A program made the position numbers and the translations under genes. The notes under the pieces were generated by a model. The model saw only the letters and a program-made list of their open reading frames with translations, was not told the origin of the DNA and did not search any database. Of a stretch of DNA of 64,000 bases, positions 1 through 62,087 are shown piece after piece (the first letter of the stretch is position 1; every line of letters starts with the position of its first letter). Source of the DNA: Patescibacteria group bacterium (GTDB lineage: Bacteria > Patescibacteriota > Patescibacteriia > Magasanikbacterales > GWA2-37-8); contig JBAZUP010000001.1 of the NCBI GenBank assembly GCA_041661385.1, forward strand, positions 145,692 through 209,691, in the 5' to 3' direction.

Positions 1-2
1 TG

Positions 3-251
3 TACTTCGACGATGTCGAAGAAGGCCGGCGCAAGGTTCAGGAAATGTACGACAAAGGCAAGGAATTGAACAAGAAAGCGAAAGCATTGAACAAGGAGAA
101 GTTTCTCAGCGACATTCAGCTGAGTCAAGTGGAAAATCTCCTCGACAAGCTCGAGGAGAGGATCAACGCCGATCGTCAGGCGATCAAGCGGAGGCCTGCC
201 CACATCGGGGCGGCGAAGAACGGTGCCGGTCTCCGGCTGATTACCGCCTAG
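3..251 (+). CDS. C-terminal 82 codons of a GC-rich foreign-looking ORF, 5' truncated by window start; function unknown
   Basis: Open frame from window edge to TAG at 249-251. Codons are strongly C/G-ending (ttc gac aag ctc gag atc aac), unlike the A/T-ending usage of neighbouring genes. Local GC is far above the window mean. Confidence 0.4.
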   Translation, partial: YFDDVEEGRRKVQEMYDKGKELNKKAKALNKEKFLSDIQLSQVENLLDKLEERINADRQAIKRRPAHIGAAKNGAGLRLITA

Positions 252-278
252 CGCGGTTGAGGACTGAACAAAAAACGT

Positions 279-316
279 CCCCCGGTAGCAATCGCTACCG
301 GGGGACATCTATTTTT
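279..316. terminator. Bidirectional rho-independent terminator: 11 bp GC stem cccccggtagc/gctaccggggg with U-runs on both sides
   Basis: Perfect inverted repeat 279-289/294-304 followed by ctattttt. A-run upstream gives a U-run on the opposite strand. Sits between convergent genes. Confidence 0.6.
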
Positions 317-3813: not shown

Positions 3814-4929
3814 TTATACCACAATTCTCCGAATAAGAGGATTAATTCTCGTAACAATTTCATAATTAATTGTTTCCGGGGTCAGCGCCGTCAAATCATC
3901 AGCAGTTATCTCCTCTTTTCCATCCGCACCGATTAGCGTCACAATTGATCCCTCTTTACAATTTTTTAGTTTTGAAACATCAATCATTGTAAGGTTCATA
4001 CATACGCGGCCTCTCACCGGACACCTTTTTCCATTAATTAGAACTTCGGCTTTATTACTCCAAGCTCTGTCATATCCATCATAGTAACCCACCGGAATAA
4101 TGGCAATTTTGCCGTTTTTAGGCATTTTATAGGTATTACCGTAACTTATGCCTGTTCCTTTCTTTACGTTCTTAACTTGAATAACGGTAGTTTTCCAGCT
4201 TAAAACAGGTTTTAGATTTATTTTTTTTCGCGATTTTTTGTCTGGATATAGGCCATAAGAACACAAACCAATCCGCACTGCGTCATACCGGGCGACTGGA
4301 TGTAAAATTGTAGCGGCACTGCATGATATATGCCTAATCGGCACACAAATTCCTATTTTTTTGAATACCCCGATTGCAGAATCAAATATTCTATTTTGTT
4401 CACGGGTGATTTCATAATCCGTTTCACTCGATGAAAAGTGGCTCCACACTCCTTCAATTTCAATGTGTTTTAATTTTTGAATATTTTTTAAAAAATCTTC
4501 AAGCTCGGACACAAAAAAACCAATTCGCGTTGTGCCGGAATCAATCTTGATATGAATTTTACATCTTTGGCCTATTCGTTCGGCTACGGTATTTAACCAA
4601 ATTGCCTGTTTTAAAGTATAAACTGGAAAGATAACATTCTTTTTCATCGCCTCCCCTGCTTTCTGAATATCAAAACTAAAAAAAGATAAAATTTGAATAG
4701 GCTTTTTTATATTTAACATTCGTAACAGAAGCGCCTCATCTAAATTTACTACAGCCAATCTATCTACATCTTCTAATTCATCGCAGATTTTTGCAACTTC
4801 AGCGATGCCGTGACCGTATGCATTCGATTTAATCACCGGAATTAAAAGTGTGGCCTTTCCAATAAGGTTACGAAAATTTTTCAGATTATGCTCTAGTGCA
4901 GAGCGATTAATTTCTACCCAACTTAGCAT
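3814..4929 (-). CDS. alr: Alanine racemase
   Basis: PLP-lysine motif VIKSNAYGHG near the N-terminus; 371 aa typical length. Confidence 0.85.
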   Translation of the reverse strand: MLSWVEINRSALEHNLKNFRNLIGKATLLIPVIKSNAYGHGIAEVAKICDELEDVDRLAVVNLDEALLLRMLNIKKPIQILSFFSFDIQKAGEAMKKNVIFPVYTLKQAIWLNTVAERIGQRCKIHIKIDSGTTRIGFFVSELEDFLKNIQKLKHIEIEGVWSHFSSSETDYEITREQNRIFDSAIGVFKKIGICVPIRHISCSAATILHPVARYDAVRIGLCSYGLYPDKKSRKKINLKPVLSWKTTVIQVKNVKKGTGISYGNTYKMPKNGKIAIIPVGYYDGYDRAWSNKAEVLINGKRCPVRGRVCMNLTMIDVSKLKNCKEGSIVTLIGADGKEEITADDLTALTPETINYEIVTRINPLIRRIVV

Positions 4930-4953: not shown

Positions 4954-6192
4954 TTAGATTTTGTTGAAGCTAAGGTATTTTTGCAATACTTTTGGAATCA
5001 AAACCGTGCCGTCTTTTTGTTGATTGTTTTCGATAATTGCGAGCATGGGTCTGTCACTTGCTACAGTTCCGTTTAAAGTGTGCGCGAATACCCTTTTTCC
5101 TTCCTTGTTTTTAATTTTAATATTGCATCTTCGGGCCTGGTAATCCGTGGTGTTGCTTGTCGAGGTAAGTTCACGGTATTTATTTTGTCCGGGAAACCAA
5201 CCTTCACAATCAAATTTTTTGGCAGCTGGAAAGCCGAGATCACCTGAGCAAACATTCACTACCTGGTAATGAATTCCGAGTGAACTAATAAACTCTTCCT
5301 CGTGGGCAAGAAGCTCGTCATGAATTTTTGCCGAATCATCTGGGGCGCAAAAAACAACCATTTCTACTTTATAAAACTGATGGACTCTAAATAACCCTTT
5401 TGTATCTTTGCCATAGCTTCCAGATTCTCGCCGAAAACATGGGGTGATAGCGATATATTTTTTTGGTAAATCGCTCTCATTAAATGTTTCGTCGGCATGC
5501 ATGTAAATTAATGAAACTTCAGATGTGCCAACTAAATATAAATTATCTTCAGTTGGGTTAACTGCATAAACTTCATTTTTATCAGCTGGAAAAAAACCCG
5601 TTCCGTACATCGCCTCTTCTCGCACCAAGACTGGCGGCAGAACTAATTCAAAGCCCTTGCCAACCATAAAATCAACGGCGTACTGCATAATCGCTCTTTC
5701 CAGTTGAGCAACTTTTCCTTTTAAATAATAAAAACGTGAACCAGAGACTTTAGCTCCCCTTTCCATATCAATACCACTTAATACCGATTCAACTGCAAAA
5801 TGTTCCTTGGGTGTAAAATCAAATTCTGGCTTTTTTCCACTGTGACTCGACACCTTGTTTTCGGAATCATCTTTTCCAACTGGTACTGAGGGGTCATTAA
5901 TATTTGGAATTTTAGTTAACAAAGACTGAAGTTCATCGCTTTTTTTCTTCAAAAGATCATCCAGCGCAGCAATTTCTTGGCCAACCTTTTTCATTTCAAT
6001 AATTTCAGCATCGGTTGGTTTAGTTTTTGACTTATCATTTCGTTTTGCCCGAAGTGCTTCGGCTTGTTTTAATAACAGATTTTTTTCTTCATCAAGCCGA
6101 ATGATTGCCGACAAATCAATCTTTACGTTTCTGGTTAAACTATTTTTTTCAACCAATTCTTTATTTTCGCGGATAAATTTTATATCTAACAT
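4954..6192 (-). CDS. serS: Seryl-tRNA synthetase
   Basis: N-terminal coiled-coil arm, class II motifs (FRRE, GLFRVHQFYKVEMV), 412 aa. Confidence 0.93.
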   Translation of the reverse strand: MLDIKFIRENKELVEKNSLTRNVKIDLSAIIRLDEEKNLLLKQAEALRAKRNDKSKTKPTDAEIIEMKKVGQEIAALDDLLKKKSDELQSLLTKIPNINDPSVPVGKDDSENKVSSHSGKKPEFDFTPKEHFAVESVLSGIDMERGAKVSGSRFYYLKGKVAQLERAIMQYAVDFMVGKGFELVLPPVLVREEAMYGTGFFPADKNEVYAVNPTEDNLYLVGTSEVSLIYMHADETFNESDLPKKYIAITPCFRRESGSYGKDTKGLFRVHQFYKVEMVVFCAPDDSAKIHDELLAHEEEFISSLGIHYQVVNVCSGDLGFPAAKKFDCEGWFPGQNKYRELTSTSNTTDYQARRCNIKIKNKEGKRVFAHTLNGTVASDRPMLAIIENNQQKDGTVLIPKVLQKYLSFNKI

Positions 6193-6213
6193 ATGATTTC
6201 GTTTGGACTATAT

Positions 6214-6612
6214 TTATTCTGGCTTTAATTTAGAACTTTTATAAATCTTCTCTTTAAATGGTTTGAGTCGGACAATTTTTGTATTTTTTCCAAATTTGTT
6301 TTCAAGTTCATCAATAAAGAATTTTTGATCATAACCTAGCGCAATAATATCCGGCTTTTCTTCATTAATAATTTGATGCTTGTCTTCATTTTCTGATCCT
6401 AACACCACTCGGTCGGCAATATTTAATTTCTCTAAATTAGCGACTCTTAATTTTTCAGAAAAATGCGGCGAATGATTTTTTACTTTTAATACTGTTTTGT
6501 CGCGAGCTATTACTACCACTAACGAATCAGCAAGTTTTTTTGCTTCTCTTAATAAATATTCGTGGCCGGGGTGTAAAATATCAAAAGTACCAAAAACCAT
6601 TATCTTCGTCAT
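6214..6612 (-). CDS. Small nucleotidyltransferase of the cytidylyltransferase/FAD-synthetase (HxGH) superfamily
   Basis: FGTFDILHPGHEYLL (H/T)xGH motif; 132 aa. Confidence 0.6.
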   Translation of the reverse strand: MTKIMVFGTFDILHPGHEYLLREAKKLADSLVVVIARDKTVLKVKNHSPHFSEKLRVANLEKLNIADRVVLGSENEDKHQIINEEKPDIIALGYDQKFFIDELENKFGKNTKIVRLKPFKEKIYKSSKLKPE

Positions 6613-6620
6613 ATTTTTAT

Positions 6621-8111
6621 CTATTCTTTTGGGTTGCTTTCGGGTCTCAGGGTAGGAAATAAAATCACTTCTTTCAAATTGGGGGCGTTTGTAAGTAGTT
6701 TAACCAAACGATCAATTCCCATTCCCATACCGGCCGTCGGGGGCATTCCATGCATCAAAGCCTCAACAAAATCCGTATCGTATGGCATAGATTCATCATC
6801 TCCGGCCGCTTCAAGTCGTAATTGTTCTTTAAATCTTTCTTCTTGATCAATCGGATCATTTAATTCCGAAAATGCGTTGCAGAGTTCATTTCCACCTACG
6901 CAAAGCAATTGAAATCTTTCAACGTAATTTAAATTTTTTACTTTTCTTTTTGCAAGCGGAGAAAGTTCAACTGGGTGATCGATTACAAAAATTGGGTTAA
7001 TTATATTAGGTCTCGCAAATTTTTTATAAATTTCGTCAATTAATTTGCCGCGGCCGGTACCAGAATCAATGTTGTCGATTTGAAGTTCTTTAGCTTTTTT
7101 AAATAGCGCCCCCTGTTCAGGATAATCCTCAATATCAATTTGAGCATGTTGGCGAATAAGTTCGCGCATCGTAATTCTTTTATAGGGCGGTGTAAAATCT
7201 ACCGTTTCACCTTCAGCTTCAAATTTTAATGATAAACCAATTGAAGTAATTAATTTAGGTAATAAATCCTCAACCAAATCCATTAGCATTTGATAATCGG
7301 CGTACGCCCAATAAAACTCAATTTGTGTAAATTCTGGATTGTGATTTTGATCAATACCCTCGTTTCTAAAACATTTTGCAATTTCGTAAACTTTCTCAAA
7401 ACCGCCGACAATCAAACGCTTTAAATATAGTTCCGGTGCGATACGTAAGTACAAAGGAATATCTAATGCGTTGTGATGTGTCTTAAAAGGTTTTGCAAGA
7501 GCTCCTCCATATAAGGTTTGTAAAACCGGAGTTTCAACTTCAAAAAAACCATGTGAATCAAAATACGAACGAATTTCTTTTACCAAAACGGATCTAATTT
7601 TTGCAATTTTAATTGATTCCGGGTTTGAAATAAGATCTAAGTAGCGTTTTCGATACCTTGCTTCTTGATCGGAAAGTCCGTGCCATTTTTCAGGCAGAGG
7701 CAAAAGCGCTTTGGAAAGAATAAAATATTTTTTAACTAAAATGCTAATTTCGCCTTTGTGAGTCGTAAAAATTGTTCCTTCAACTTCCAAAAAGTCACCA
7801 ATATCAAAATTTTTGTTAAAAAATTTATAAGGGATTTTTTCTAATTCCGTTTCGGTCAGAACGATTTGGATATTTCCCGATTCGTCATGAAGGTGGCAAA
7901 AGGTCAATTTGCCCATTTCACGGCGCGTCATAATTCTGCCCGCCACAGTTAGTGAGGTTCCTTCGGCGGAAATTTTTGCTTCGGCCAAAGTGTGGGTACG
8001 ACGACTGCGCGCTGGAAACGGATCAATGCCTTCATGGATAATATTTTTCAAGTGTCCAAGTCTGGCTTCCGATTCCGTTTGGTGTTCTACCATTTTTTTC
8101 GACTCACTCAT
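6621..8111 (-). CDS. lysS: Lysyl-tRNA synthetase, class II
   Basis: OB-fold N-domain plus class II core (FRNEG, GGNELCNAFSELNDP, GMGIDRL). Start placed at MSESKK; the ORF track extends 18 codons further upstream. Confidence 0.93.
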   Translation of the reverse strand: MSESKKMVEHQTESEARLGHLKNIIHEGIDPFPARSRRTHTLAEAKISAEGTSLTVAGRIMTRREMGKLTFCHLHDESGNIQIVLTETELEKIPYKFFNKNFDIGDFLEVEGTIFTTHKGEISILVKKYFILSKALLPLPEKWHGLSDQEARYRKRYLDLISNPESIKIAKIRSVLVKEIRSYFDSHGFFEVETPVLQTLYGGALAKPFKTHHNALDIPLYLRIAPELYLKRLIVGGFEKVYEIAKCFRNEGIDQNHNPEFTQIEFYWAYADYQMLMDLVEDLLPKLITSIGLSLKFEAEGETVDFTPPYKRITMRELIRQHAQIDIEDYPEQGALFKKAKELQIDNIDSGTGRGKLIDEIYKKFARPNIINPIFVIDHPVELSPLAKRKVKNLNYVERFQLLCVGGNELCNAFSELNDPIDQEERFKEQLRLEAAGDDESMPYDTDFVEALMHGMPPTAGMGMGIDRLVKLLTNAPNLKEVILFPTLRPESNPKE

Positions 8112-23256: not shown

Positions 23257-23505
<249 letters not shown>

Positions 23506-42233: not shown

Positions 42234-42290
42234 ATTAGTGGAATTAATAATTATATTTTTATCGTAACAGACTGAATGCATTTGCGCAAC

Positions 42291-42326
42291 CCCGAAAATA
42301 TATAGGGCGCCTCCGAAGAGGCGCCC
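42291..42326 (-). terminator. Strong minus-strand terminator: 9 bp GC stem gggcgcctc/gaggcgccc with UUCG loop, then UAUAUAUUUU
   Basis: Perfect inverted repeat 42305-42313/42318-42326; the reverse-complement loop is UUCG; AT run follows on the minus strand. Confidence 0.6.
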
Positions 42327-42347
42327 TGGTGGTGCATGGGTTTGCCG

Positions 42348-42524
42348 CTAAGCGGCGTTGTTGTCCTCCTTGGAGAGGGGTGGTACGGGCTGGGACTTTT
42401 GGTCCTTCCCGCTGAAACGATCGACAGCTCCGCCGACGTCGTGTTCGAGAGTCGCCCCGTCGGGTGTCACCAGCTTGGGGTGATATCCGAAGCGCTGATT
42501 GCCCATCCTGCCTGCGTGAGACAT
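42348..42524 (-). CDS. 58-aa GC-rich foreign-looking ORF (MSHAGRMGNQRFGYHPKLVTPDGATLEHDVGGAVDRFSGKDQKSQPVPPLSKEDNNAA), function unknown
   Basis: RBS GAGGAAAGGG 10-14 nt upstream. G/C-ending codons. Terminated by the strong hairpin at 42291-42326. Could instead be a non-coding RNA. Confidence 0.3.
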   Translation of the reverse strand: MSHAGRMGNQRFGYHPKLVTPDGATLEHDVGGAVDRFSGKDQKSQPVPPLSKEDNNAA

Positions 42525-42684
42525 GTGTATCCGCCCTTTCCTCTACTATTAGGTCCATGCTGCTTTAGTAGAGCTTAAAAATGTTATCACAATAAGCTAA
42601 ATATTTCAAGATAAGCTATAAATATCACAACATTTATTATTGACAAAATGTCATAAAAAACATAGACTCTATATACAAATATAT

Positions 42685-53009: not shown

Positions 53010-53190
53010 TGTGTGGGAGGAGCGACCAAACTGCTTTGGTCGCGTATGGGGTGAGAACGCCGGAGCCATGTCCGAGGAGCTTTGCTGGCGACGAGGACGG
53101 CGAGGCGGTGGCTAGCCCGAATGAGCGGAAGCGAATGAGAGGCGAAGCAGAATCCCGGATAAAGCGCGCGAGAATCCCCCGACCTACTTC
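53010..53190. other. GC-rich (~60%) purine-rich non-coding islet with 9-bp perfect hairpin gcgaccaaa-ctgc-tttggtcgc and tandem gcGAATGAGngg units
   Basis: No ORF over 25 codons on either strand once the read-through of tRNA-Lys is discounted. Composition contrasts sharply with the flanks. Confidence 0.3.
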
Positions 53191-54203
53191 AAATACTTAT
53201 CAAAAAACGCGACTGATCTTTTCATTGCGAGGTCAAAGTTCGGAGCTGATAAATTATGATTGCCGTTTTTATAGGTATATAATTCTATCTTCTTTTTTGC
53301 CAATTTCATCTTATTATAAAATCCGCGCGAGAAATCAATCGGCACATCCAGATCTTTTGTACCGGCGTGAAGCTGAATCGGTGTAGTTATGTCTTTTATA
53401 TAATAGGTTGGATCGACAAGTTTCCAATAACTAAGATTTGTTTTTGGTGTGCCATATTTCGCGATAATCTTTTTGCGATAATCTTGCTTCACTGAGATGT
53501 CCTTTGGCGAAGGTCTGTATACAGCTTTCGGATTATTATCCGGCCAATTGAACATAATATCGCGGTATGATGCTACTACCCCACCCCAGATGACTGCTGC
53601 TTTAATGCTTTTACCATCTACTAATAAATTTTTTAAAGTTATATTTCCACCCATTGAATGAGCCCAGTAACCGATTTTTTTTGCATTAACATCGGGATAT
53701 TTTTTTAGACTTGAAAGCGCGTTCAAAACATCGATAGCGTACGCAGGTGAATAATACACACCCTCTGGAGCACCCTCAGACTCCGCGTGCCCGCGATAAT
53801 CTGGTTTAAAAACTACATAACCTTTTTTTGCAAAATAATCTACATAGGCCGCGTAGCGCTTTTCCGTGGTATATACTTCGGGTTGAACATAGCCGTGAAG
53901 AAAAAGAATCGCCGGCCAGCCACCAATAGGCTTTTCACCCTTTGGCACAGTTAGCAAACCATTTTCCTTTAATCCATCAGACTCATAGGAAACAATATAG
54001 CGATAATAAGTACTAGAGGCATCTAACTCACTTACAACGACAAAATCACTGCCCGGGTAAGCGCGCGCTTTAAGCGAAGATATTTTAAGCTGGTTTGCTA
54101 TTTGCGAAACAGAAAGTTCTTTTACAGTTGAAGTTGTTTCTGCCAAAACCGAACCCGCTACAAATATAAAAGCAAATACAATGATTGCCGTTATTTTTTT
54201 CAT
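53184..54203 (-). CDS. Secreted alpha/beta hydrolase (S9 / dienelactone-hydrolase-like)
   Basis: Signal peptide, nucleophile elbow GYWAHSMGG, C-terminal Asp/His. Confidence 0.7.
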   Translation of the reverse strand: MKKITAIIVFAFIFVAGSVLAETTSTVKELSVSQIANQLKISSLKARAYPGSDFVVVSELDASSTYYRYIVSYESDGLKENGLLTVPKGEKPIGGWPAILFLHGYVQPEVYTTEKRYAAYVDYFAKKGYVVFKPDYRGHAESEGAPEGVYYSPAYAIDVLNALSSLKKYPDVNAKKIGYWAHSMGGNITLKNLLVDGKSIKAAVIWGGVVASYRDIMFNWPDNNPKAVYRPSPKDISVKQDYRKKIIAKYGTPKTNLSYWKLVDPTYYIKDITTPIQLHAGTKDLDVPIDFSRGFYNKMKLAKKKIELYTYKNGNHNLSAPNFDLAMKRSVAFFDKYLK

Positions 54204-54870: not shown

Positions 54871-55356
54871 TTAGACTTTGGTTCCGCAACAGGGACACCC
54901 ATGATTAATGGAAACCACTGGAGTTCCCTCGATTTCGATGGCGGTTGCTGATGAAACAATGCAGACTGAGATTGGAACAAGCTGGGGCGTGCTTGGAGCA
55001 AATTTACGGGTAAAGATTCTTTCCCGTACTTCTTCCAAGCATTTTTTGCTAAAAGCAATTTCTTGCACATGCAAAATCTTTTGTCCCTGATCGAGACGCA
55101 AATTTGCTTTCAGACACTTGAACTTGGCTCCTGCTCCCAAACTTTTGGCGAGAGCAGTAAAAATTTTCGTTCGATAGTCTGCGACTACCAGATCTATTAC
55201 GCAAAGACTATGTCTCTGCACTTCTTTGGTAATAAAATCCAATGCCCGGTCGCGAAACAATTTATTCTGAAGTTTTATAATCGTTTGTCGATATTCTTCC
55301 CGGATGGCCTCCCGACTCGCAAGCAAATACTTATCATTAAATTTTTTTTTCATCAT
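54871..55356 (-). CDS. Hypothetical protein ending in HGCPCCGTKV
   Basis: 161 aa, no family recognised. Confidence 0.35.
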   Translation of the reverse strand: MMKKKFNDKYLLASREAIREEYRQTIIKLQNKLFRDRALDFITKEVQRHSLCVIDLVVADYRTKIFTALAKSLGAGAKFKCLKANLRLDQGQKILHVQEIAFSKKCLEEVRERIFTRKFAPSTPQLVPISVCIVSSATAIEIEGTPVVSINHGCPCCGTKV

Positions 55357-58315: not shown

Positions 58316-60106
58316 TTAAATAGCTTGAATTTTTTGTAACTCGTCAATTAGATTTGATATTCTCAAATTATCCTTTAGTTTTTCCGCGTCAGCCAGTTCA
58401 CTTTGTATTTCCTTTCCTCTCTGAACCTTCCACATACCTTTAATTCTGTACAGGAGCTGCTCCAACTCCTTACCCGATGTTTCGGGTGTTATATTGTCAA
58501 AATCCTTTGAGGCCCTTAATAACAAGAGCTCCACAGAGGAAGAAAGGCCAGTATTCGCTATTTCCGAACGAATATCATCTGCGGTAATTTTGTTGCGCTT
58601 ATTATATATTCTTTCGGCTGCTTCGTAAAGGCCTGCGAAACCAGAACTAAAAAATTGGCCAGTCGGTATTTTATCACGCAATGAATTGTAATTTTCCGGG
58701 TGTTTCAATAGTAACGACCAAAATTCCTCTTCCATATTATCCTGCGGGCTTTTCACGACAATTTCTACCTTTGACAACTCTACCTTTACCGGACTCACAA
58801 CTTTCGATTTTATTTTTTTAATTTCTTCACGTAATACGCTCGGCTCAATTGAAAGATCATCTGCTAATTTCTTTAACCACTCATCCCGTTCTACGCCATT
58901 TGGAATTTTTGAAATTTCCAGAAGCAAAGCCTGTGCAACTTTTTGTTTTGAACCAAAATCTTTCTTATTTAATCCACTAAGATGAATACCAAAATACCAA
59001 TCCATCACACCCTTGGCATTTTTTACGGAATCAAACCAAACTGTCGGATTTTTTTTCAAACATTCATCCGCGTCCTTTCCGGCTCCGGGAGGAATTTGAA
59101 TAACTTTTATACTCATTCCGTTTTCAAGCGCTACATCAATTCCTCTTTGACCGGCTTTTTGTCCGGCCGCATCCGCATCAAACGCCATGATAATATTATT
59201 ACTATAGCGCTTTAATAATTTAACCTGTTCCATAGTTAATGCCGTACCAGAAGCCGCAACCACATTAGCCATACCAGCTTGATGGCAAGCTATTACATCC
59301 ATTTGCCCTTCCACTACCACCGCTTGATCTTTGGCTTTGATTTCTGTTTTTGCGCGATGAATTCCGTACAAAACTCGTGATTTGTCATAAAGCGCGGTTT
59401 CTGGAGTGTTTACATATTTTCCGCCCGACTTCTCTGTTTCCACCAAAACTCGGCCGGTAAAGCCAATTACATTCGCGTGAGTATCGTAAATCGGAAACAT
59501 TATCCTACCTCTAAATCGATCATAAAATCCCTGACCGGTTTTTTCGTCTGCTCCTTCTCTTCTAATTGTAAGCCCCGCGAGAACTAAATCTGTTAGAGCA
59601 AAACCCTTTTTTAATAAATATTGAGTTAGCAGTTCCCACTGATCGGGAATATACCCAATTTGCCAATCGGTAATAGTCTGATTTTTTAATCCTCTATTTT
59701 CTAAATATTTTCTTGCCGGTTCAGCAGCCGGAAGTTCGGTAAGAAAACGGTGATAAAAAATTGCCGCGGAATTATTTATTTCAAGCAAACGATTTCTGAG
59801 GCTAGCGTTTTCTTCATTACGATCAAGATTAACTTCTACTCCGGCGCGTTTTGCGAGCAATTTTAAACATTCAACAAAATCCAATCCTTCCATTTCCTGA
59901 ACAAAGGTAAAAACATCTCCGCCCTTACCACAACCAAAACAATGCCAGATCTGTTTTTCCTGATGAACCATAAAAGACGGGCTCTTTTCATTATGAAAAG
60001 GACAGTTCGCTTTCCAGTTAGCGCCAGCCTTTTTTAGAGTGATATATTCACCAATAATCTGGACGATGTCCAACCGGTCTTTTATAGCCTGGGTATCTGT
60101 TGCCAT
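58316..60106 (-). CDS. dnaG: DNA primase
   Basis: Zinc ribbon CPFHNEKSPSF...CFGCGKGGD, TOPRIM EGQMDV, 596 aa. Confidence 0.95.
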   Translation of the reverse strand: MATDTQAIKDRLDIVQIIGEYITLKKAGANWKANCPFHNEKSPSFMVHQEKQIWHCFGCGKGGDVFTFVQEMEGLDFVECLKLLAKRAGVEVNLDRNEENASLRNRLLEINNSAAIFYHRFLTELPAAEPARKYLENRGLKNQTITDWQIGYIPDQWELLTQYLLKKGFALTDLVLAGLTIRREGADEKTGQGFYDRFRGRIMFPIYDTHANVIGFTGRVLVETEKSGGKYVNTPETALYDKSRVLYGIHRAKTEIKAKDQAVVVEGQMDVIACHQAGMANVVAASGTALTMEQVKLLKRYSNNIIMAFDADAAGQKAGQRGIDVALENGMSIKVIQIPPGAGKDADECLKKNPTVWFDSVKNAKGVMDWYFGIHLSGLNKKDFGSKQKVAQALLLEISKIPNGVERDEWLKKLADDLSIEPSVLREEIKKIKSKVVSPVKVELSKVEIVVKSPQDNMEEEFWSLLLKHPENYNSLRDKIPTGQFFSSGFAGLYEAAERIYNKRNKITADDIRSEIANTGLSSSVELLLLRASKDFDNITPETSGKELEQLLYRIKGMWKVQRGKEIQSELADAEKLKDNLRISNLIDELQKIQAI

Positions 60107-60198
60107 ATGCTCGCTAGATTAACACTAAAAATCCATCTTCGCAAGTCTAAAAGGTGTTAAAATTGTGCTTAATTTGGCTTAAAACTGCCCAAATGCTC

Positions 60199-60227
60199 TT
60201 GACAATATCGTCATATTATGCTAATAT
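60199..60227 (+). promoter_or_regulatory. Near-consensus sigma70 promoter TTGACA-17-TAATAT in the dnaG divergent intergenic region
   Basis: TTGACA 60199-60204, 17-nt spacer, TAATAT 60222-60227, ~85-nt leader to ATG 60315. Confidence 0.5.
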
Positions 60228-60314
60228 ATTCAGTTGATTTTAACTCGGCGAAAGAAATTTCACCCTGTTAATCAGCAAATCTGATGTTCACTTTTCACCT
60301 CGAAAGGGAAAACG

Positions 60315-60767
60315 ATGACCCGTAATACTCGCAGTTCATACCAGAAATTGCTCTTGGTACTCAACGAAGTCTTCGTTGGCTACTGGTTCATCACCTACCC
60401 AGTCATCATCGTCACCGCATCCAACTTCGCCGTTGAGCAAGATTTTTCCGAAAGACTCATCATCTTCGCCTTGCTCCTTCCGGTGTTGAAGATGGTGCTC
60501 TTGCTCGTCGAATTGAACGATGAGATGAAGGCTGCCCGTGAAAACAGGCAGTACGACGAGGAGAAGGCCAATTCCATCGGCCCCATCGAGAACGAACTCG
60601 ACATCCCGACGAATATTCGTCGAATGCACCCCGACCCAAACTGGGGGGAAAAGTTCGTTGCTGCCATGAAGAATCCGCAGCCTGATGACATTCCGCCCGA
60701 AGACGGCAAGCTCCTCGACTTCCCCGCCTACAAGAGGCACAGCAAGAAGCCCGACCTGCCCAACTAA
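60315..60767 (+). CDS. GC-rich foreign-looking 150-aa protein: two N-terminal TM helices plus acidic, Pro-rich C-terminal tail
   Basis: Strong C-ending codon bias (ttc atc ctc gac aac aag ccc), ~52% GC against a ~35% background. Upstream RBS aaggga. Confidence 0.5.
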   Translation: MTRNTRSSYQKLLLVLNEVFVGYWFITYPVIIVTASNFAVEQDFSERLIIFALLLPVLKMVLLLVELNDEMKAARENRQYDEEKANSIGPIENELDIPTNIRRMHPDPNWGEKFVAAMKNPQPDDIPPEDGKLLDFPAYKRHSKKPDLPN

Positions 60768-60788
60768 AGCAGGACATCAGAAACACCT

Positions 60789-60826
60789 CTAACCCCTCCC
60801 CCGATTCGTCGGTGCGGAGGGGTTTA
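60789..60826. terminator. GC-rich hairpin cccctcc...ggagggg then T/A run
   Basis: 7 bp G/C stem with 16-nt loop; weak U-tract. Confidence 0.35.
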
Positions 60827-60836
60827 AATTTTATAC

Positions 60837-62087
60837 TTATTCTTTACGAAGCGCGTCAATTGGACTTAAGTTAGACGCTTTACGGGCCGGATAAATACCG
60901 AACAGTAAACCAATGACGGCTGAAAAACCAACTGAAAGTAAAATTGAAAATAACGAAACATCAAAAACCCATTTGAAGCCAAAACGAACTGCTAGGTAAT
61001 AAATTACATACGCTAAGACCGAACCAATAATAATACCTACTACTCCACCACCAAGTGTAACTAGCACCGCTTCTGAAAGAAATTGTAAAAGGATATCGCT
61101 TTTTTTTGCGCCCAAAGATTTTCTAAGTCCGATTTCAAACGTCCGCTCGGCAACCGATACATACATAATATTCATAATTCCAACCCCTCCCACCAAAAGC
61201 GAGATACAAACGAGCGCCACCAAAAGAAGTGTAACACCATCGGTAACTGTTTTCAGAGATTTCAAAGCGTCAGCCGTGGTATTTATCATAAAATCATCAC
61301 GATCGGGGTTAGTGATAGAATGATTTTCGCGAATTATTGCAGCCAAATCATCCACTGTTTCGGCGGCTTTATTTGTGTCGCGCAGATTAGCTATGATCTG
61401 TCTCACATAATCAATGCCCAATAATTTTTTTTGCATTGTTTTACACGGCATGTAAATAACCGTATCGAGATCAAAAATAAAAGCGGCACCGCGCGGAGCC
61501 AAAACACCAATCACTCGAAATGATTTTCCACTAAGATAGATATTTTTTCCAACCGCCGATTCATCACCAAACAAAGTTTCTTTTACTTTCGCACCTAGCA
61601 CAACAACAGAGGCCAGTGAATCTTCCTCGTCTTTGGCATAAAACCTTCCTTCAGAAAATTTTAACACCTCAACTTCTGCCGCTCCGGCTCCTTCACCCCA
61701 AATAGTTGTTTTTTGATTATAGCCATTGTAGGAAGCGATTTCCTGGCCGATTACCATTCCATACGCAACGGAAATATTTGGGTGTTTACTAACATCTTCA
61801 ATATCTTTATCCCGTAAAGTGGTAATTACAACACCGCTTGCCTGAGCAATTGCGCTATCGCTTGAATTTGCCTTAGATGTTGGAATTTTAGTTTCAATGC
61901 TTAAAGATTTTGCATCAAAAATATCAAATTGACCAAGCACAAACTTTTGCATACCGCGACCCGCCGCCATAATAGTAATAACCGCGCTAATGCCAATACT
62001 AATAGCTAGCATTGTTAAAATCGTGCGGCGCTTTTGGCGCAAAAGGGACTGATATGCGAGTCTAATGTTATTTATACGAATTAACAT
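60837..62087 (-). CDS. ABC transporter permease, MacB/FtsX-like fold
   Basis: N-terminal TM, large periplasmic domain, C-terminal three TM with FtsX-type conserved loop. Confidence 0.8.
   Translation of the reverse strand: MLIRINNIRLAYQSLLRQKRRTILTMLAISIGISAVITIMAAGRGMQKFVLGQFDIFDAKSLSIETKIPTSKANSSDSAIAQASGVVITTLRDKDIEDVSKHPNISVAYGMVIGQEIASYNGYNQKTTIWGEGAGAAEVEVLKFSEGRFYAKDEEDSLASVVVLGAKVKETLFGDESAVGKNIYLSGKSFRVIGVLAPRGAAFIFDLDTVIYMPCKTMQKKLLGIDYVRQIIANLRDTNKAAETVDDLAAIIRENHSITNPDRDDFMINTTADALKSLKTVTDGVTLLLVALVCISLLVGGVGIMNIMYVSVAERTFEIGLRKSLGAKKSDILLQFLSEAVLVTLGGGVVGIIIGSVLAYVIYYLAVRFGFKWVFDVSLFSILLSVGFSAVIGLLFGIYPARKASNLSPIDALRKE

Follow-up and report, generated by a model that had tools for sequence, protein, structure and literature searches.

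Between dnaG and a MacB-type permease gene, a 64,000-nt stretch of DNA from a Patescibacteria group bacterium (GenBank assembly GCA_041661385.1, contig JBAZUP010000001.1, positions 145,692 to 209,691; hereafter the window) carries a small GC-rich islet, that is, an open reading frame (ORF) for a 150-aa hypothetical membrane protein with its own promoter, leader and terminator. An earlier note on this DNA had read the islet as one of several single-gene cassettes acquired from a high-GC donor. Our analysis points instead to an old, vertically inherited gene that is restricted to a small clade of low-GC Patescibacteria and has a conserved messenger RNA (mRNA) design, a reading to which we assign a probability of roughly 0.6. 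The evidence comes from homologs with the same codon bias at the same site in related contigs, from non-coding parts that are conserved far better than the protein, and from a codon choice that differs in kind from that of other genes of the window.

Inheritance and age of the islet gene

The window is low-GC sequence (GC ~0.38), and the islet ORF departs from it sharply. The ORF is 453 bp long with 52.8% GC, in agreement with the ~52% given earlier, and its GC at the three codon positions is 0.53, 0.31 and 0.74, as compared to a third-position GC (GC3) of 0.32-0.36 in five neighbours (rpoD, dnaG, macB1, macB2 and the ABC ATPase gene). Such a rise at the third position alone, the first two being normal, marks a coding sequence. 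Among the 71 non-overlapping ORFs of the window, only the islet ORF and the ORF at 45..251 have a GC3 of at least 0.74 (~0.75). The preference for C-ending codons that the earlier note recorded is evident in the counts, the highest of which are CTC 9, AAG 9, ATC 8, AAC 7, GAC 7, TTC 6, CCC 6 and GCC 6, and codons TTA, CTA and ATA are absent from the gene. The note had also mentioned five spurious overlapping ORFs; such ORFs are indeed present, but those of at least 40 aa number four (three antisense, one in an alternate frame). The antisense ORFs overlap the gene because TTA, CTA and (nearly) TCA codons are avoided.

An exhaustive HMMER search of 1.84 billion representative proteins recovered four homologs (P0002-P0005) with 31-41% identity, giving a family of five proteins of 112-150 aa. 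A word-index protein search with the single sequence returned the islet protein itself only, and the same type of search with the family profile found no members beyond the homologs from the exhaustive search. Three of the homologs (P0003, P0004 and P0005) come with gene context, in contigs L011, L012 (141 kb) and L013, respectively; each occupies the interval from the dnaG start to the macB end and is encoded on the opposite strand, as in the window. Their GC3 is 0.69 (L011), 0.85 (L012) and 0.81 (L013), while that of their neighbours is 0.28-0.42, and in each of these contigs the homolog is the compositional outlier. The fourth homolog (P0002; GC3 0.83) occupies a 601-bp contig without gene context. 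Compared with the window proteins, the flanking proteins are 70-96% (DnaG) and 85-86% (MacB) identical, and the synonymous divergence (dS) of the flanking genes is saturated, ranging from 1.4 to infinity. The islet protein, with a nonsynonymous divergence (dN) of 0.53-0.77, is evolving five to seven times faster than its flanks, and the family alignment is without a conserved stretch. Over such a span, a neutral signature of foreign origin would have faded. Because the bias is as strong or stronger in the relatives despite the saturated dS of the flanks, the high GC3 is maintained and not decaying.

In more distant relatives (contigs L004, L008 and L009, with DnaG 51-71% identical), the genes are co-directional in the order ABC-macB-macB-dnaG-rpoD, the macB-dnaG gap measures 47-49 bp, and the islet gene is absent. 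Since the junction is empty in these relatives and occupied in the clade, we conclude that one insertion took place in the ancestor of the small clade; the gene would have entered the macB-dnaG junction once, before the lineages of the clade split, and stayed. As the earlier note had seen, it is now the sole plus-strand gene in a minus-strand region, between dnaG and macB, and the claim of insertion holds with respect to the more distant relatives and for a self-contained transcription unit, but not in the sense of a recent foreign import. The split of the ancestral macB-dnaG operon left dnaG needing a promoter of its own. In L011, a minus-strand promoter-like site (TTGGCA-18-CATAAT, 483-512) adjoins the islet promoter back to back; the window has a weaker one (TTGGGC...CACAAT) beside its islet promoter, within 60107-60198. 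The same junction has been hit by insertions more than once, since in L007 macB and dnaG are separated by an inserted 617-aa ORF (6058-7911) of the same orientation. Two other contigs (L005 and L006, DnaG 60-61% identical) have a different context upstream of dnaG and are uninformative for the islet locus. Upstream of dnaG, the L005 region (1-1312; DnaG 61% identical, genome ~49% GC) combines a GC3-rich gene with a fragment of an integrase and a tRNA-like sequence; it has the look of a true integrated island and bears no relation to the islet family.

No repeats bracket 60107-60836, no mobility genes flank the islet, and neither an integrase nor a tRNA target is present at the islet, whose neighbours are dnaG and macB. 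Searches of Pfam, PHROGs and PADLOC gave no match above cut-off for any family member or for the proteins of the other islets described below, and no viral or defence family matched the islet family proteins. A viral origin was considered and rejected: a DNA pattern composed of the promoter and GTTGATTTT, the conserved sequence at the putative transcription start, matched 27 viral contigs, none of which is related or carries a GC-rich ORF downstream of the match. A near-identical locus matching TTGACA-17-TAnnAT-GTTGATTTT is shared by some 20 large phage contigs (L019-L044), most of them from one sample; the sequence downstream of the match is AT-rich and has no relation to the islet.

These results bear on the provenance proposed in the earlier note. 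The codon usage had been taken as the sign of a high-GC donor, yet the same bias occurs at the same site in L011, L012 and L013, and no donor homolog outside this type of locus was found among the 1.84 billion representative proteins. The comparison of the dnaG-macB interval, which the note itself had suggested, thus yielded biased homologs in related low-GC contigs, the outcome that it had named as contradicting its reading. Repeated acquisition of small cassettes fares no better, since the second islet, at 42.3 kb, is likewise syntenic and GC3-rich (0.78 and 0.92) in relatives. A single ancient transfer into the common ancestor may have taken place; it would leave the persistence of the bias unexplained. 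Compositional outliers are routinely scored as horizontal transfers. Composition-based island calling would here mislabel a whole class of native genes, in which a GC3 anomaly of ~0.4-0.5 is stably maintained.

Transcript architecture and codon choice

The non-coding parts of the islet are far better conserved than its protein. The near-consensus promoter of the earlier note is real and has a TG 5' of its -10 element (Table 1); the orthologous promoters score 12/12 (L011, L013) and 11/12 (L012) against 10/12 in the window, and the extended -10 TG is present in all four. GTTGATTTT, at 60233 in the window, would start all transcripts and closes a 44-nt hairpin. With this position as the start, the leader is ~82 nt long, close to the ~85 nt stated before; transcript starts and ends were taken from promoter and terminator motifs. 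In an unfitted MAFFT alignment, the 5' hairpin has 19 pairs with 90.5% of cells paired and 9 compensatory pairs, and 0/500 shuffles reach its score.

The element [U/C]UGAUG[U/C], ~25 nt before the ATG, is complementary to sequence just past the stop codon. A helix of 7-10 bp between the leader and the 3' untranslated region (3'UTR) is accordingly present in the minimum free energy (MFE) folds of the complete 500-610-nt transcripts at 5/5 loci, and RNAduplex energies compared with shuffled 3'UTRs gave p <= 0.007 at 4/5 loci. Alignment of this helix showed 9 pairs, 93% of cells paired and 4 compensatory pairs, with 1/500 shuffles reaching the score. The GC-rich hairpin that the earlier note assigned to the gene is that of the intrinsic terminator, and the sequence of its stem is conserved in the orthologs.

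A Shine-Dalgarno (SD) sequence further sets the islet apart. SD sequences precede 9/9 islet-type genes, with free energies of pairing (dG) to a generic anti-SD of -5.5 to -8.5 (-5.6 to -8.3 in the orthologs of the islet gene), whereas the 66 ordinary window genes have a median dG of +0.1 and only 2-5% of them have an SD. Starts of the ordinary genes were our own calls (e.g., upstream of 60106, 63327, 19813, 22237 and 13106), and the anti-SD was a generic one; the host 16S rRNA lies outside the window. One of the two ordinary genes with a clear SD (GAGGTG, dG -6.5) is that for a 161-aa Cys-rich protein at 54871-55356 on the minus strand. Its GC3 is slightly raised, at 0.40, as compared to 0.50 in its L012 ortholog (4237-4713), and from its sequence it may be a weaker member of the islet class.

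Codon choice was next compared between islet and flanking genes. When the five orthologs were pooled, C was found at 75% of two-fold pyrimidine-ending codons and G at 75% of two-fold purine-ending codons, versus ~0.2 and ~0.26, respectively, in the flanks; four-fold sites were 51% C and 28% G, and neither TTA, CTA nor ATA occurred among 77 Leu and 45 Ile codons. The G-fraction at two-fold purine-ending codons is 0.65-0.95 across the islets. In atpA, atpD, atpE and greA, which are probably highly expressed, the use of C over T is raised (0.44-0.67) while the G-fraction is lowered (0.10-0.16). Because the G-fraction of these genes moves the opposite way, the islet bias is a general avoidance of A and U at the wobble position and not the translational optimisation of the genome. 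The genome's own direction of translational selection is shown by the codon pattern of a 73-aa ORF in the ATP synthase cluster (23257-23478, minus strand; GC3 0.55, raised by C-ending codons, with a G-fraction of only 0.14 at purine-ending codons), which by its position and size we take to be probably ATP synthase subunit c. GC at first and second codon positions (GC1 and GC2) is host-like in the islet orthologs despite fast protein evolution, the leader and promoter have 31-37% GC, and the GC shift is confined to the coding sequence (CDS), which together argue against a regional mutational or conversion bias.

Codon order contributes as well. When synonymous codons were shuffled among sites, the native CDS folded more tightly than its permutations in 5/5 orthologs (z-scores of -1.97 for the window gene and -1.99, -2.85, -1.43 and -2.03 for the others), so that the order of the codons, and not just their content, adds structure. 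Eleven ordinary window genes that served as controls had a mean permutation z of -0.28 (standard deviation 0.77).

We infer that RNA stability or translational gating is the selective reason for this design. The transcript may be built for persistence: the 5'-terminal hairpin would block decay that depends on the 5' end, the depletion of A and U together with tight folding would remove sites for AU-directed endonucleases, and the leader-trailer helix could close the coding region into a loop, as in the hbs mRNA of Bacillus subtilis. The SD sequence would allow initiation on an otherwise structured RNA, and the mRNA design perhaps gates translation too.

Table 1. Features of the islet, its flanking genes and the two other islets of the window
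Feature	Position	Strand	Basis or remark
Sigma-70-type promoter TTGACA-17-TAATAT with extended -10 TG	60199..60227	+	consensus score 10/12
Hairpin at putative 5' end of mRNA, 44 nt (GUUGAU...AUCAGC)	60233..60276	+	predicted in 5/5 orthologs
Leader arm UCUGAUGUUC of predicted long-range 5'UTR-3'UTR helix	60280..60289	+	MFE folds
SD-like sequence GAAAGGGA, 6 nt 5' of ATG	60302..60309	+	dG -5.5 to generic anti-SD
CDS, 150 aa, hypothetical protein WC725_01035 (NCBI)	60315..60767	+	GC3 0.74
Transmembrane helix 1, ~residues 12-36	60348..60422	+	hydropathy; AlphaFold helix 3-36
Transmembrane helix 2, ~residues 47-67	60453..60515	+	hydropathy, AlphaFold; juxtamembrane continuation to ~residue 84
Tail motif copy 1, LDIPTNIRR, residues 95-103	60597..60623	+	family alignment; resembles FtsZ C-terminal peptide
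Tail motif copy 2, LDFPAYKRH, residues 134-142	60714..60740	+	family alignment, motif profile
3'UTR arm GGACAUCAGA of predicted long-range helix, 5 nt past stop	60772..60781	+	MFE folds, duplex energy, compensatory pairs
Intrinsic terminator, CCCCTCC...GGAGGGG hairpin (60793-60822) followed by T-rich tract TTTAAATTTTAT	60793..60834	+	inverted repeat; stem conserved in orthologs
dnaG, divergent from islet promoter	58316..60106	-	flank; Pfam annotation of ortholog
MacB-type permease gene, convergent with islet gene	60837..62087	-	flank; Pfam annotation of ortholog
Second islet: promoter, 5' hairpin, SD, 58-aa CDS (42348-42524), terminator (42304-42327)	42304..42612	-	
Third islet (islet 1), 3' part in window: CDS end (251), 3'UTR arm GACUGAAC (262-269), terminator hairpin (277-306)	1..306	+	

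Other genes of the same build and rival explanations

Two further islets in the window and a second cassette in L012 are built alike. In islet 2, the hairpin loop reads GCAUGG (42555-42560), for which the 3'UTR holds the complement CCAUGC (42334-42339). Its orthologs lie between tRNA-Asn and a peroxiredoxin gene in L015 (54 aa, GC3 0.78) and in L016 (59 aa, GC3 0.92), the latter being the same contig as L012, and the GCAUGG/CCAUGC complementarity is kept in the window, L015 and L016 while the hairpin stems differ. The gene is missing in L014 (3716-3961, corresponding to window 42282-42684), where tRNA-Asn is followed immediately by the peroxiredoxin gene (Prx 84% identical), which indicates presence/absence variation of small genes within the clade. 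The 58-aa protein of islet 2 is hydrophilic. A 99-aa ORF on the same strand (42259-42558) was dismissed as an out-of-frame artefact (GC1 0.65, GC2 0.62), the real gene being the 58-aa one. Islet 1 is cut by the start of the window; the whole gene, recovered from L045, encodes a 108-aa coiled-coil protein (GC3 0.77), and its leader GUUCAGUC is complementary to GACUGAAC just past the stop codon (duplex p 0.014). The recombinase adjoining islet 1 is Xer-like by Pfam.

The second self-contained cassette of L012 (9452-9880), between dnaG and the family member, has no counterpart in the window. It has a TTG start, a 91-aa product with two hydrophobic segments, a GC3 of 0.60, a promoter scoring 11/12 and its own terminator, and it pairs leader AACUGAUUU with 3'UTR AAAUCAGU. 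It was rejected as a homolog of the family (hhalign probability 1.4%). Promoter strength, SD, GC3 enrichment, leader-trailer complementarity and a strong terminator are therefore shared by four unrelated small genes, and the similar build of islets 1 and 2 and the second L012 cassette indicates a gene class, not a one-off. As far as our searches show, a class of GC3-rich, SD-led, closed-loop mRNAs in an SD-less low-GC genome is previously undescribed. The hairpin, the leader-trailer helix and the excess folding of the CDS offer a testable case of synonymous-site selection via mRNA architecture, and the contrast between the SD-led islet and the SD-less bulk of genes bears on translation start in candidate phyla radiation (CPR) bacteria. 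Elsewhere in the window, a 175-nt stretch (53010-53185) with up to 64% GC is bounded by the terminator of tRNA-Lys and by the end of the gene at 53184-54203. This stretch contains no convincing ORF and no Rfam match, and its plus strand has a fold z of -1.5; a small RNA not yet described is one candidate for it, a decayed islet another.

A number of points count against a conserved mRNA design. The long-range duplex of L012 has a p of 0.09 and is non-significant on its own. The concatenated leader and 3'UTR were misaligned by MAFFT, hence the pairs of the long-range helix were counted on 28-mers registered by hand, which favours the proposed helix. All covariation counts rest on five family members only, MFE folds of 500-600-nt RNAs are unreliable in detail, and the 5' and 3' ends of the transcripts were read from motifs rather than from expression data. 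The permutation fold z of islet 2 is uneven among its orthologs (-0.37, -1.26 and -2.91). Some Parcubacteria are without the anti-SD motif (PMC9297842); were it absent here too, the G-rich element could not serve as an SD. Translational gating through occlusion of the SD and start is unsupported, as the predicted occlusion does not differ from that of ordinary genes: the predicted unpaired probability at the SD and start is 0.2-0.85 and overlaps the values of ordinary genes.

Several other explanations account for part of these data. A foreign single-gene cassette, recently acquired from a higher-GC donor and with C-ending codons as the un-ameliorated signature of that donor, would fit a GC3 of 0.74 in a host with ~0.33, the absence of the gene from the macB-dnaG junction of more distant relatives, the presence of an SD-led gene in a genome without SD sequences and the lack of detectable relatives in the bulk of the lineage. 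We regard it as very improbable, given that the bias is equal or stronger at the same site in 3/3 related contigs with gene context, next to flanks with saturated dS, that promoter and leader, both AT-rich, are conserved and diverge together with the host, and that neither a donor homolog among the 1.84 billion representatives nor flanking repeats or mobility genes were found. An integron gene cassette was discarded on other grounds, namely the consensus promoter of its own, a 3' hairpin made of a simple GC stem and a T tract, and the lack of an array. Host-like GC1 and GC2 despite a dN of 0.5-0.8 tell against foreign origin and also against a local mutational process, for example mutation associated with transcription or, at a recombination hotspot, GC-biased gene conversion. 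Such a process would suit a fast-evolving protein at a locus of variable content (the second L012 cassette; the presence or absence of islet 2 in L014), but it would have to spare the leader and promoter (31-37% GC) and confine itself to the CDS, it would have to act at three unlinked loci on both strands, and it would not order codons toward tighter folding; its chances seem to us remote. That the functional product is a non-coding RNA or a long antisense ORF, and not the plus-strand ORF, is hardly credible. Three antisense frames are open for >100 codons and the RNA is highly structured, but the antisense ORFs follow automatically from the avoidance of TTA, CTA and TCA, and GC by codon position fits the plus frame in 5/5 loci; the SD and ATG are present as well, and protein motifs persist among homologs with 31-41% identity. 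Promoter scans of four loci detected none on the antisense strand within the transcript. An Rfam scan of the whole window at gathering scores returned five tRNAs only, a permissive Rfam scan of 60100-60900 returned weak snoRNA and small RNA matches at chance level only, and ARAGORN detected no tmRNA in the window.

The remaining alternatives concern function. A type I toxin-antitoxin-like or other toxic small membrane protein, whose fold-back mRNA would be a stable inert store as for hok or aapA1, would explain the long-range 5'-3' interaction, the strongly structured mRNA and the strong promoter, as well as a fast-evolving, lineage-specific membrane protein product and the tandem cassettes of L012. 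We nevertheless consider it unlikely: the proteins have 112-150 aa with a long hydrophilic tail and are not peptides of <60 aa, a consensus scan of four loci found no antisense promoter overlapping the mRNA, the SD and start are predicted to be no more occluded than in ordinary genes, and the design also serves a 58-aa hydrophilic and a 108-aa coiled-coil protein, unlike membrane toxins. Ordinary translational selection, in which the gene would be among the most highly expressed and its codons simply optimal, is consistent with the conserved, near-consensus promoter and with the use of C over T at two-fold pyrimidine codons, which atp genes and greA share. This also appears quite unlikely, as the G-fraction at purine-ending codons is lowered in atp genes and greA (0.10-0.16) and raised in the islets (0.65-0.95), C and G take over at four-fold sites, and the arrangement of codons adds folding energy beyond composition, which selection for elongation rate does not predict. 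An old resident gene with a conserved mRNA design thus remains our preferred reading.

The encoded protein and comparison with known systems

The two N-terminal transmembrane helices proposed in the earlier note are borne out by both hydropathy and an AlphaFold model. The model, built from the five-sequence alignment (mean predicted local distance difference test score, pLDDT, 70.5), shows a helical hairpin (residues 3-36 and 42-84) and a low-confidence tail (pLDDT 39-68), so that the protein is modelled as a two-helix membrane hairpin with a disordered tail. The hydrophilic tail, of ~85 aa, is Pro-rich as the note had stated (11 P), while its acidity is only mild (16 D/E versus 13 K/R). Positions conserved in the five-sequence alignment include an N-terminal basic segment (M-x-R-Y-x-R-x-T-x-x-E), followed by a YWW-containing helix, a short acidic loop and a second hydrophobic helix, and in the tail LNEE-x-K-x-x-RE-x-x-QY-x-x-EP-x-x-SIGP-x-x-N-I-x-D-I-P-x-F-x-R-R. 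The charge distribution, by the positive-inside rule, suggests that both termini are cytoplasmic (N-in/C-in). A Foldseek search of the model against the PDB gave meaningless helical matches only (E > 8).

The tail provides a lead to function. The motif D-[IF]-P-[AT]-[FY]-x-R-[RK] occurs once in P0003 and twice in the window protein, P0002 and P0004, D96 is invariant in the family alignment, and the P0004 copy reads DIPAYLRK, as compared to DIPAFLRK in FtsZ. The motif was found in no other six-frame ORF of the window and 17 loci, and no FtsA or FtsZ gene is present in the window or the loci compared. When a profile of the seven motif copies was searched against 177,635 distinct PDB sequences, ranks 1-4 were FtsZ, aligned on the C-terminal LDIPAFLR[RK]Q, and most copies match six or seven of the eight positions of the core D-I/L-P-x-F-L-R/K-R/K. 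In Escherichia coli, FtsA, ZipA, MinC, ZapD, ClpX and SlmA dock on the FtsZ tail DYLDIPAFLRKQAD, and L378 is critical for the binding of FtsA, ZipA and MinC (PMC4117426). The resemblance is weakened by the score statistics and by this very residue: the FtsZ matches have E-values of 0.46-1.8, within chance range, while the top match of a reversed-sequence control, an unrelated protein, has 0.48; and the residue aligned with L378 varies in the family (K, Q, L, I, R). That the tail functions as a mimic of the FtsZ C-terminal peptide is therefore a tentative and statistically insecure lead drawn from motif similarity. FtsZ uses this peptide to contact FtsA, ZipA, SepF, MinC and others; a membrane-tethered mimic of this kind could compete for, or recruit, a division protein, and the gene possibly acts in cell division.

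A broader proposal combines these elements. The clade might run a second gene-expression regime, comprising about one small gene per 20 kb in the window, with long-lived mRNAs whose translation depends on ribosome state or conditions, and the islet protein might be an FtsZ-peptide decoy that couples division to this regime; we consider this combination doubtful. The host has a reduced genome and is so far not culturable alone. If true, FtsZ-peptide mimicry would be a new mode of division regulation and the first handle on division control in Patescibacteria.

Like the FtsZ C-terminal peptide, the islet core D-I-P-A/T-F/Y-x-R-K/R comes last in a Pro-rich, disordered segment, with basic residues after it. 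Unlike in FtsZ, the motif belongs to an orphan protein anchored in the membrane, where it can occur twice and does not lie at the very C-terminus, and the family does not keep the Leu that is critical in E. coli. The protein also resembles B. subtilis YneA (PMC13396833) and Staphylococcus aureus SosA (PMC6851548) in being a small, lineage-specific, fast-evolving membrane protein, and by analogy, if active on division, it would work like small membrane inhibitors of this type. YneA and SosA are single-pass, SOS-regulated proteins whose extracytoplasmic parts act on late divisome proteins such as FtsW (PMC13396833, PMC6851548). The islet protein differs in that its proposed active part is cytoplasmic and would mimic the FtsZ tail, and it shows no sequence similarity to them and no evident LexA-type operator.

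The gene shares with horizontally acquired islets a sharp local anomaly in GC and codon usage, the status of a small orphan gene and its absence from more distant relatives; it is set apart from them by the lack of mobility signatures or a donor, by synteny and by an anomaly kept across saturated divergence. As a rare SD-led gene among ordinary genes without SD sequences, it recalls the SD-bearing rpsU of SD-blind Bacteroidia (PMC13000453), an analogy which suggests that such a gene in an SD-less genome could be translated in a manner dependent on ribosome state. The islet belongs to another phylum and is another gene, and some Parcubacteria have no anti-SD (PMC9297842).

With type I toxin mRNAs such as hok/Sok (PMC9841398), the islet has in common a long-distance 5'-3' interaction, a compact, stable mRNA as predicted here, a membrane protein product and a locus that is lineage-specific, fast-evolving and sometimes tandem. 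It differs from hok/Sok in that no antisense RNA gene was found and the predicted openness of the SD overlaps that of ordinary genes, in that the protein is two to three times larger with a long, probably cytoplasmic tail, and in that non-membrane proteins share the islet design. In the B. subtilis hbs mRNA, a 14-bp contact of the 5'UTR with the 3'UTR modulates cleavage by RNase Y and so stability (PMC5737220). The islet likewise has a short mRNA for a small protein, a structured 5'UTR, a strong SD and a leader that is predicted to pair with the 3'UTR just upstream of the terminator. In contrast to hbs, its helix measures 7-10 bp instead of 14 bp and has no known cleavage site, its CDS has a GC3 far above that of the genome and an excess of folding, and its design is found in four or more unrelated small genes of the lineage.

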